Of a DNA stretch of 30,137 bases, positions 478 through 515 are shown piece by piece (position 1 is the stretch's first letter; every line of letters begins with the position of its first letter). The position numbers and the translations under genes were made by a program. The notes beneath the pieces were generated by a model that was not told the origin of the DNA, ran no database searches, and saw only the letters and a program-made list of their open reading frames with translations. Where the stretch lies: assembly GCF_003334355.1 (NCBI RefSeq), contig NZ_QOWP01000040.1. One strand, 5' to 3'. Source of the DNA: Escherichia coli (GTDB lineage: Bacteria > Pseudomonadota > Gammaproteobacteria > Enterobacterales > Enterobacteriaceae).

Positions 478-515
478 GCGTTAGCTGAGTTTTTCGCGAA
501 AAATTCAGCTAACGC
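478..515. other. 38-bp near-perfect palindrome in the purH leader (function unknown)
   Basis: GCGTTAGCTGAGTTTTTCGCGAAAAATTCAGCTAACGC; the two 19-nt halves are reverse complements with one mismatch (a G-U pair in RNA). Confidence 0.5.

Follow-up and report, generated by a model that had tools for sequence, protein, structure and literature searches.

The 5' leader of the purHD operon of Escherichia coli contains a long hairpin that is, as judged by sequence comparison, an RNA helix on the purH sense strand. The palindrome from which it forms is very probably a selected RNA structure. Its stem (P2), the small hairpin that precedes it (P1) and a 5-bp extension of P2 all show selection for sense-strand pairing, and the element is single-copy and found at purH only. 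It is an undescribed conserved cis-acting leader hairpin, familiar in kind and not a new kind of system, and it probably controls purHD expression after transcription start.

Genomic setting and the palindrome

The window (the whole stretch of 30,137 bp that was analysed) carries purH and purD on the + strand (Table 1). RefSeq annotation of matching E. coli loci shows purH on the + strand and, just beyond the left edge of the window, a 16S rRNA gene on the - strand. Window positions 1-290, read on the - strand, are the leader of the rrnE operon, with the P2 promoter (TTGACT-16-TAATAT, 143 to 116, - strand) and P1 further upstream. A sub-threshold 'Ysr197' match at 53-286 on the - strand, obtained with Rfam 15 at permissive thresholds, we read as this rRNA operon leader and not as an sRNA gene. 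Of 5,426 complete E. coli genomes, 5,413 matched positions 1-700 with a query coverage of 80% or more, and one strain matched at 100%. K-12 MG1655, an O157:H7 strain and strain M217 all had the same sequence over the palindrome and its flanks (positions ~420-560).

A first-pass annotation of this DNA had described a 38-bp near-perfect palindrome just upstream of the purH start, without a U-tract in either orientation and hence not a canonical terminator. The letters at 478-515 (GCGTTAGCTGAGTTTTTCGCGAAAAATTCAGCTAACGC) were confirmed as an inverted repeat with 19-nt arms (478-496/497-515), 18/19 matches (95% complementary) and no spacer. The sole non-Watson-Crick position is G489/T504, which is a G.U wobble in + strand RNA. 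The palindrome ranked first among the inverted repeats of the whole window and was longer than chance produced: across 60 shuffles that preserved dinucleotide composition, the longest arm with no more than one mismatch had a mean length of 11 nt and a maximum of 14 nt, whereas the arms of the palindrome measure 19 nt. Next in rank, at 29940-29985, is an inverted repeat with 22-nt arms (82% complementary) and a 2-nt spacer. Between the end of the palindrome and the start of the purH ORF at 548 are 32 nt. A T-run follows the palindrome on neither strand and no + strand terminator was predicted at 478-520, so the statement on terminators was correct for E. coli. On the genome coordinates used by Cho et al. 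2011 (PMC3159470), the palindrome lies at approximately 4,205,588-4,205,625, and the purH-purD PurR box published there (ACGAAAACGTTTGCGC) at 4,205,663-4,205,678. The box that had been placed upstream of the palindrome, at 425-440, is the reverse complement of that published box.

Promoter and start of the leader

PurR boxes are generally located between the -35 and -10 elements (PMC3159470). At purH the box adjoined the -10 hexamer (TACAAT/TAAAAT) in 42/42 Enterobacterales loci examined. From the position of the -10 we infer that transcription of purHD starts at about G453/A454; with +1 at ~453, the palindrome would span approximately +26 to +63. Its position, always downstream of the conserved PurR box and -10, would put it within the predicted purHD transcript. 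The corresponding leader would be ~95 nt long in E. coli and 90-220 nt across the Enterobacterales loci. No start-site or 3'-end entry for purH was found in the accessible parts of the supplements of Adams 2021, Kim 2012, Conway 2014 and Ettwiller 2016. Positions 453-458, at the predicted start, include five consecutive A, and a 'GCAAAA'-type run is kept there in many species; the run might serve start-site choice or transcript slippage tied to purine nucleotide levels.

Table 1. Features of the purHD promoter, leader and genes, with energies of three constrained folds
Feature	Position	Strand	Basis or remark
PurR operator GCGCAAACGTTTTCGT	425-440	+	Reverse complement of the PMC3159470 purH-purD box
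Predicted -10 hexamer TACAAT, purHD promoter	441-446	+	Abuts the PurR box in every species
A-rich single strand, ~13 nt	453-465	+	5' end of predicted leader
P1, small hairpin GCCCC-GUUA-GGGGC	466-479	+	82-94% paired across species; 4/5 pairs change both sides
P2 extension, 5' strand GGGGC (also 3' strand of P1)	475-479	+	Pairs with 514-518: minimum-energy fold, RNAalifold consensus
P2 (palindrome), core stem 480-494/499-513, loop CGCG 495-498	478-515	+	Repeat, folding, covariation
Conserved 3' tail GCUCUCU; 514-518 is the 3' strand of the P2 extension	514-520	+	Alignments
Spacer, ~10 nt	after 520	+	Between tail and local hairpin
Local hairpin AAAUCC-AGG-GGAUUU	530-544	+	Predicted fold; holds half of the purH Shine-Dalgarno (536-541)
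purH coding sequence	548-2137	+	ORF list; RefSeq annotation of identical E. coli loci
purD coding sequence	2149-3438	+	ORF list; after purH
Constrained fold, P1 + P2	453-580		-39.8 kcal/mol
Constrained fold, extended P2	453-580		-41.0 kcal/mol
Constrained fold, extended P2 + CCCC(467-470):GGGG(537-540)	453-580		-36.4 kcal/mol

Folding of the E. coli leader

Leader RNA 453-570 folded at -41 kcal/mol (z = -5.4), and 0/200 shuffles folded as well. An mRNA stem had been suggested for the palindrome, and the minimum-energy fold contained one of 20 bp (475-494/499-518). The P2 core had a pair probability of ~1.0, and the 44-nt P2 hairpin a stability of -27.7 kcal/mol. P1 and P2 adjoin without a linker, P1 sharing G478 and C479 with the palindrome. 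The small hairpin at 466-479 had been named as a possible competitor of the palindrome; its competition is specifically with the conserved 5-bp extension (475-479/514-518), the two being mutually exclusive in pairing and the two states within ~1 kcal/mol of each other. In the 3' tail, TAACGCTCT was invariant or almost so in the alignments. Further downstream, G539-A541 of the purH Shine-Dalgarno had an unpaired probability of ~0.01, and the local hairpin that holds them was conserved in the E. coli-like group only.

Conservation and covariation in Enterobacterales

Comparison was made over 80 loci encoding close PurH relatives, with one genome per species. When purH leaders were compared across the Enterobacteriaceae and related families, the hairpin was found to be kept in 34 Enterobacterales species: E. 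coli and 33 others carry it between promoter and AUG with a shared basal sequence (GGGGCGUUAsCUGA...UCAnsUAACGCUCU). These species were drawn from Enterobacteriaceae, Erwiniaceae, Yersiniaceae and Brenneria. The element was located 32-57 nt upstream of the purH AUG and always downstream of the PurR box and -10. Covariance model R1, built from 19 Enterobacteriaceae sequences, matched the + strand directly upstream of purH in 32 species loci (E-values 1e-25 to 0.015) and gave no convincing match elsewhere in the 273 kb searched. Rahnella bruchi and Brenneria joined the alignment through an anchor search.

The conserved arms were 34 nt apart in E. coli, where the loop is 4 nt, and up to 98 nt apart in Rahnella bruchi. 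The tip of the hairpin varied from 4 to ~60 nt, with the inserted material continuing the helix, and the main helix measured 19-39 bp in the 34 species (20 bp in E. coli); the floor of ~19 bp arises partly because the base itself is conserved. In Pantoea, Erwinia, Serratia, Yersinia and Rahnella (L024-L038) an apical pyrimidine run is followed by UAUAUA and a purine run, e.g. CUCUUUAUAUAGAGAG; this segment is lost in the E. coli clade.

In the 34-species alignment 87-90% of cells were paired over P1 and P2, against 35-52% when the partner strand was slid; for the P2 core alone the values were 89% and 35-51%. Eight of the 15 P2 core pairs change on both sides yet stay paired. Over P1 and the 15-bp core together 87% of cells were paired (35-51% with the partner slid), 12 pairs had both sides changed, and 0/500 column shuffles reached the observed scores. 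At position 484:509, for example, the pair was G-C in 20 species, C-G in 10, U-A in 2 and U.G in 1. Position 485:508 was paired in 16 species, including E. coli, and was a C.C or C.U mismatch in 18. The extension pairs 475-479/514-518 were almost invariant among the 34 species (GU 32, GC 33, GU 31, GC 28, CG 26), which is in itself evidence neither for nor against pairing; RNAfold and RNAalifold both pair the extension. In Rahnella P1 is lost, while GGG and UCU of the extension are retained.

RNA or DNA, and the strand

Over the 20 pairs, G.U cells outnumbered A.C cells by 105 to 10, and in the core by 35 to 6. On the opposite strand every G.U becomes a C.A mismatch, and the asymmetry therefore marks the strand. 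The + strand hairpin RNA was also the more stable in 25/31 species (Wilcoxon p = 0.002, the species not being independent). The first-pass annotation had left the choice between an mRNA structure and an operator for a dimeric protein. The former gained support from the compensatory changes in 34 species, the G.U excess and the position, which is always inside the predicted leader. The latter failed on the distance between the arms (34-98 nt) and on the G.U positions, which make the DNA half-sites unequal.

The wider case for a DNA-level element, whether an operator of a dimeric regulator or a cruciform formed by supercoiling from the divergent rrnE promoters, is accordingly close to nil. The palindrome is near-perfect, with an A/T-rich centre in E. 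coli; the rrnE P1/P2 promoters are ~250 bp away; and PhoP and RbsR appear next to PurR among the purHD regulators tabulated in PMC10100675. The half-sites of an operator need fixed spacing, however; pairs kept through G.U are meaningless in DNA, and the strand asymmetry is strong. The variable arm spacing and the G.U asymmetry together rule out the dimeric operator and make a DNA cruciform unnecessary. The arms are moreover unlike the PurR box, and apparently unlike the rbs (RbsR) operator. RbsR more plausibly uses the PurR-box region than the palindrome. Two likenesses in the DNA were examined and rejected: a PhoP-like repeat, GCGTTA-N5-GTTTTT, matched at 4/6 + 4/6 only and its second half was not conserved, and the resemblance of the arms to a PurR half-site (CGTTAGC vs CGTTTGC) was not conserved in Serratia or Pantoea.

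Known families, repeats and literature

With Rfam 15 at permissive thresholds, the palindrome gave only a chance match to mir-725 (E = 0.026, 24 bits, against a gathering score of 76), and no Rfam family was found over the purH leaders of 14 other loci. In a sensitive BLAST search of 458-527 against complete E. coli genomes, the median number of places hit per genome was 2, corresponding to both strands of the single purH locus. A dispersed repeat (REP/BIME, ERIC, MITE) was rejected, the sequence being single-copy in 5,420 E. coli genomes and present at one site in the window. The view that the element is undescribed agrees with Rfam 15 and with the literature searched, the purHD sequencing papers of 1989/1990 standing outside that search; Aiba & Mizobuchi 1989 and Flannigan et al. 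1990 may perhaps mention the dyad symmetry. The literature searched describes the regulation of E. coli purHD as transcriptional, and a 2024 review of purine-pathway regulation names PurR and RbsR alone for it. A dependence of purHD on SspA has been described, and the sRNA NsrP has its pairing site at the beginning of purD rather than within the purHD leader. Both purH and purD are fitness determinants for growth of E. coli in serum (PMC12858057; PMC11904087).

purH leaders of other lineages

Neither R1 nor R2 detected a purH leader in Morganellaceae, Hafniaceae, Budviciaceae, Vibrionaceae, Aeromonadaceae or Pasteurellaceae. Many of the purH leaders negative in both searches still form, on folding, a long hairpin in the corresponding position; Pasteurellaceae and some Vibrio have short purH leaders without one. 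In 12 Vibrionaceae species and Oceanisphaera the hairpin has a different conserved base, AAGGUMUUUACCAAAA...UUUUGGCAAAUAUCUU, and lies ~30-130 nt upstream of purH (L047-L076, Oceanisphaera being L059). In this Vibrionaceae-type hairpin 88.7% of cells were paired, 9/17 pairs changed on both sides and 0/500 shuffles matched. Its main helix measured 18-32 bp in the 13 leaders, and one internal position held a non-standard pair in 10/13, mostly A.C by alignment. No Rfam match was found in the scanned leaders L047, L049, L059, L062 and L043, the last of which lacks the hairpin.

The two families are alike in that each has one internal position that is usually mismatched, a helix floor of ~18-20 bp and a tip that ranges from 4 nt to tens of nt. 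Their arms also look alike by eye (GGGGCGUUACCUGAAU in Enterobacterales, GGGUAUUUACCAAAAU in Vibrionaceae). Homology of the two hairpins was considered, but R2 found no Vibrionaceae, Morganellaceae or Pasteurellaceae leader, and the claim is therefore limited to a parallel architecture. The purH leader of Photorhabdus caribbeanensis (L039) has an extra insert of ~100 nt relative to other Photorhabdus, which seems to resemble an ERIC/IRU-type enterobacterial repeat.

A proposed processing or stability element

The P2 hairpin in the ~95-nt purHD leader is tentatively read as a cis-acting processing or stability element that depends on double-stranded RNA, the reading we favour though with rather less than even confidence. 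A helix of at least two turns in two lineages, an unconstrained tip and, in E. coli, a full length of 20 bp that depends on an extension in competition with P1 all fit such an element. The long helix would be the substrate of RNase III or of another protein that needs two turns of duplex, and its cleavage or binding would set the lifetime and translation of purHD mRNA independently of PurR. Competition between P1 (CCCC:GGGG) and the extension (GGGGC:GCUCU) would decide whether the helix reaches its full 20 bp, a simple way in which substrate quality could be modulated.

An RNase III-type mechanism in particular is possible but doubtful. RNase III of E. coli requires a duplex of about two helical turns, and 5' leader hairpins are the means by which it controls the rnc, pnp and adhE mRNAs. 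The ~20 bp of near-continuous duplex that the enzyme requires is present as 20 bp in E. coli and as 19-39 bp in the 34 species. RNase III has little sequence specificity, and the sequence conservation of the basal 15-17 bp is thus left unexplained. In the part of the Gordon et al. 2017 list that covers the purH-rrsE spacer, the RNase III sites comprised the rrsE-leader site only and none in the palindrome; because purHD is repressed in rich medium, that list may miss purHD sites. The 2024 review, naming PurR and RbsR alone for purHD, counts against the processing or stability reading.

The purHD leader shares with the RNase III leaders of rnc, rpsO-pnp and adhE a long, largely unbroken RNA helix, some two turns in length, that sits in the 5' leader of a single mRNA, a tip that is free to vary and a cis effect on stability or translation, the last presumed for purHD. 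It differs from them in that its base is conserved in sequence and is overlapped by a small competing hairpin, and cleavage is established for rnc, pnp and adhE only.

Alternative mechanisms

As a translational switch, which we consider possible though unlikely, extended P2 would take GGGG from P1, and the freed CCCC (467-470) would mask the G-run of the purH Shine-Dalgarno (537-540), with the long hairpin acting as a clamp that brings the CCCC and Shine-Dalgarno segments together. RNAalifold on 16 Enterobacteriaceae leaders picked just this arrangement, extended P2 with CCCC:GGGG(SD); P1 + P2 and extended P2 differ by at most 1.2 kcal/mol, and the extension pairs are almost invariant. On the other hand, the CCCC:SD pair had a probability of 0.01 in the E. 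coli ensemble, the enforced state lay 4.6 kcal/mol above the minimum, and the purH Shine-Dalgarno is already half-buried by the local hairpin. Rahnella, Brenneria and Vibrionaceae have the long hairpin without P1. The 3' strand of P1 resembles a Shine-Dalgarno, so complementarity of CCCC to the latter is automatic and weak evidence.

A similarly low probability is given to a passive role, in which a stable helix blocks 5'-end-dependent RNase E scanning or Rho loading and stabilises the transcript without regulatory input. Hairpins in 5' leaders can stabilise E. coli mRNAs, ompA being an example. The high stability of the P2 hairpin and its pair probability of ~1 agree with this role, as do the free variation of the tip and the recurrence of long hairpins in purH leaders of lineages without a detected sequence family. 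For such a role 8-10 bp would suffice, however, whereas the floor here is ~19 bp, and the sequence conservation of the base and the GCUCU tail goes unexplained. With ~13 nt unpaired at the predicted 5' end, the end itself would be unprotected.

Less probable is binding of a trans-acting factor to the basal duplex with its frequent C.C/C.U mismatch. The factor would be a protein, possibly PurH in an autoregulatory circuit, or, less plausibly, a small ligand reporting AICAR or folate status. Sequence is conserved inside the helix, 485:508 is mismatched in 18 species, and one internal position of the Vibrionaceae hairpin is likewise mismatched in most cases. A 2026 preprint places PurH among E. 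coli RNA-associated proteins, which is a lead only, the preprint naming no target RNA for PurH. There are, against this reading, no conserved unpaired nucleotides beyond those able to pair alternatively. The E. coli helix is a perfect duplex, its 20 bp leading up to a tetraloop without any internal loop, which leaves no obvious pocket.

A more ambitious reading, which we hold to be very improbable, makes the hairpin the core of an ancient riboregulator that is specific to purH in Enterobacterales and has its counterpart in Vibrionales. It would fill the role taken elsewhere by the ZTP riboswitch and report AICAR or one-carbon status to purHD expression, either through a protein bound to the conserved duplex, which might be PurH itself, or by switching between P1 and the extended helix in response to a ligand.

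A transcription attenuator that stops transcription before purH unless P1 forms is hardly credible: U-rich tails (UCUUUUUAU or UCUUUAUUG) do follow the helix in Serratia, Rahnella and Pantoea, but the U-richer tails occur only in Yersiniaceae and Erwiniaceae, UCUCUGUAAU follows the stem in E. coli and relatives, with no predicted + strand terminator, the stem base is A/U-rich, and the accessible part of the 3'-end supplement of Adams et al. 2021 has no entry for purH.

Comparison with other leader systems

The ZTP riboswitch (pfl motif, RF01750) is a purH-associated leader RNA in many other bacterial phyla. It has in common with the purHD element that a purH-specific 5' leader RNA is conserved over a large clade and that purH is controlled beyond the general purine repressor, the latter presumed for purHD. 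In contrast to the riboswitch, the purHD element matched no Rfam family at any of the thresholds used and lacks a pseudoknot or conserved unpaired pocket, the E. coli version being a plain 20-bp duplex.

The pyrC and pyrD leader hairpins of E. coli and Salmonella provide translation control that depends on start-site switching. There too a nucleotide-biosynthesis gene combines a PurR box with a 5' leader hairpin as a second layer of control, a layer that is presumed for purHD. The pyrC/pyrD hairpins are short, start right at the 5' end and themselves sequester the Shine-Dalgarno, whereas the purHD hairpin is 15-20 bp long, begins ~23 nt into the leader and stops 32 nt before the AUG. The ompA-type stabiliser is, like the purHD hairpin, a stable stem-loop of an enterobacterial 5' leader that is not a terminator. 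It sits at the extreme 5' end, whereas the purHD leader leaves ~13 nt single-stranded and its helix is far longer than protection needs.

purHD is a textbook PurR-regulated operon of the most-studied bacterium. A covarying helix in its leader implies an unrecognised post-transcriptional layer on the AICAR (ZMP)-consuming step, the same step that is guarded by the ZTP riboswitch in other phyla. An ancient element in a textbook operon makes the purHD hairpin of moderate interest.

Other features of the leader

The heptamer AAGGAUG at 459-465 contains a GGA motif that resembles a CsrA site; Enterobacteriaceae and some Pantoea have the heptamer, Serratia and Yersinia do not. A CsrA site composed of this heptamer and the GGA in the Shine-Dalgarno was rejected, the 5' GGA being missing in Serratia, Yersinia and others, and no link between purH and CsrA was found in the literature searched. 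A three-codon uORF, AUG CCC CGU UAG, starts within AAGGAUG and overlaps the 5' arm of P1. It is the only uORF after the predicted start, and a leader peptide was rejected on its unusable Shine-Dalgarno spacing and lack of conservation. On the - strand, the complement of P1 (479-466) followed by AUCCUUAUUU scores as terminator-like, for antisense transcription towards rrnE.
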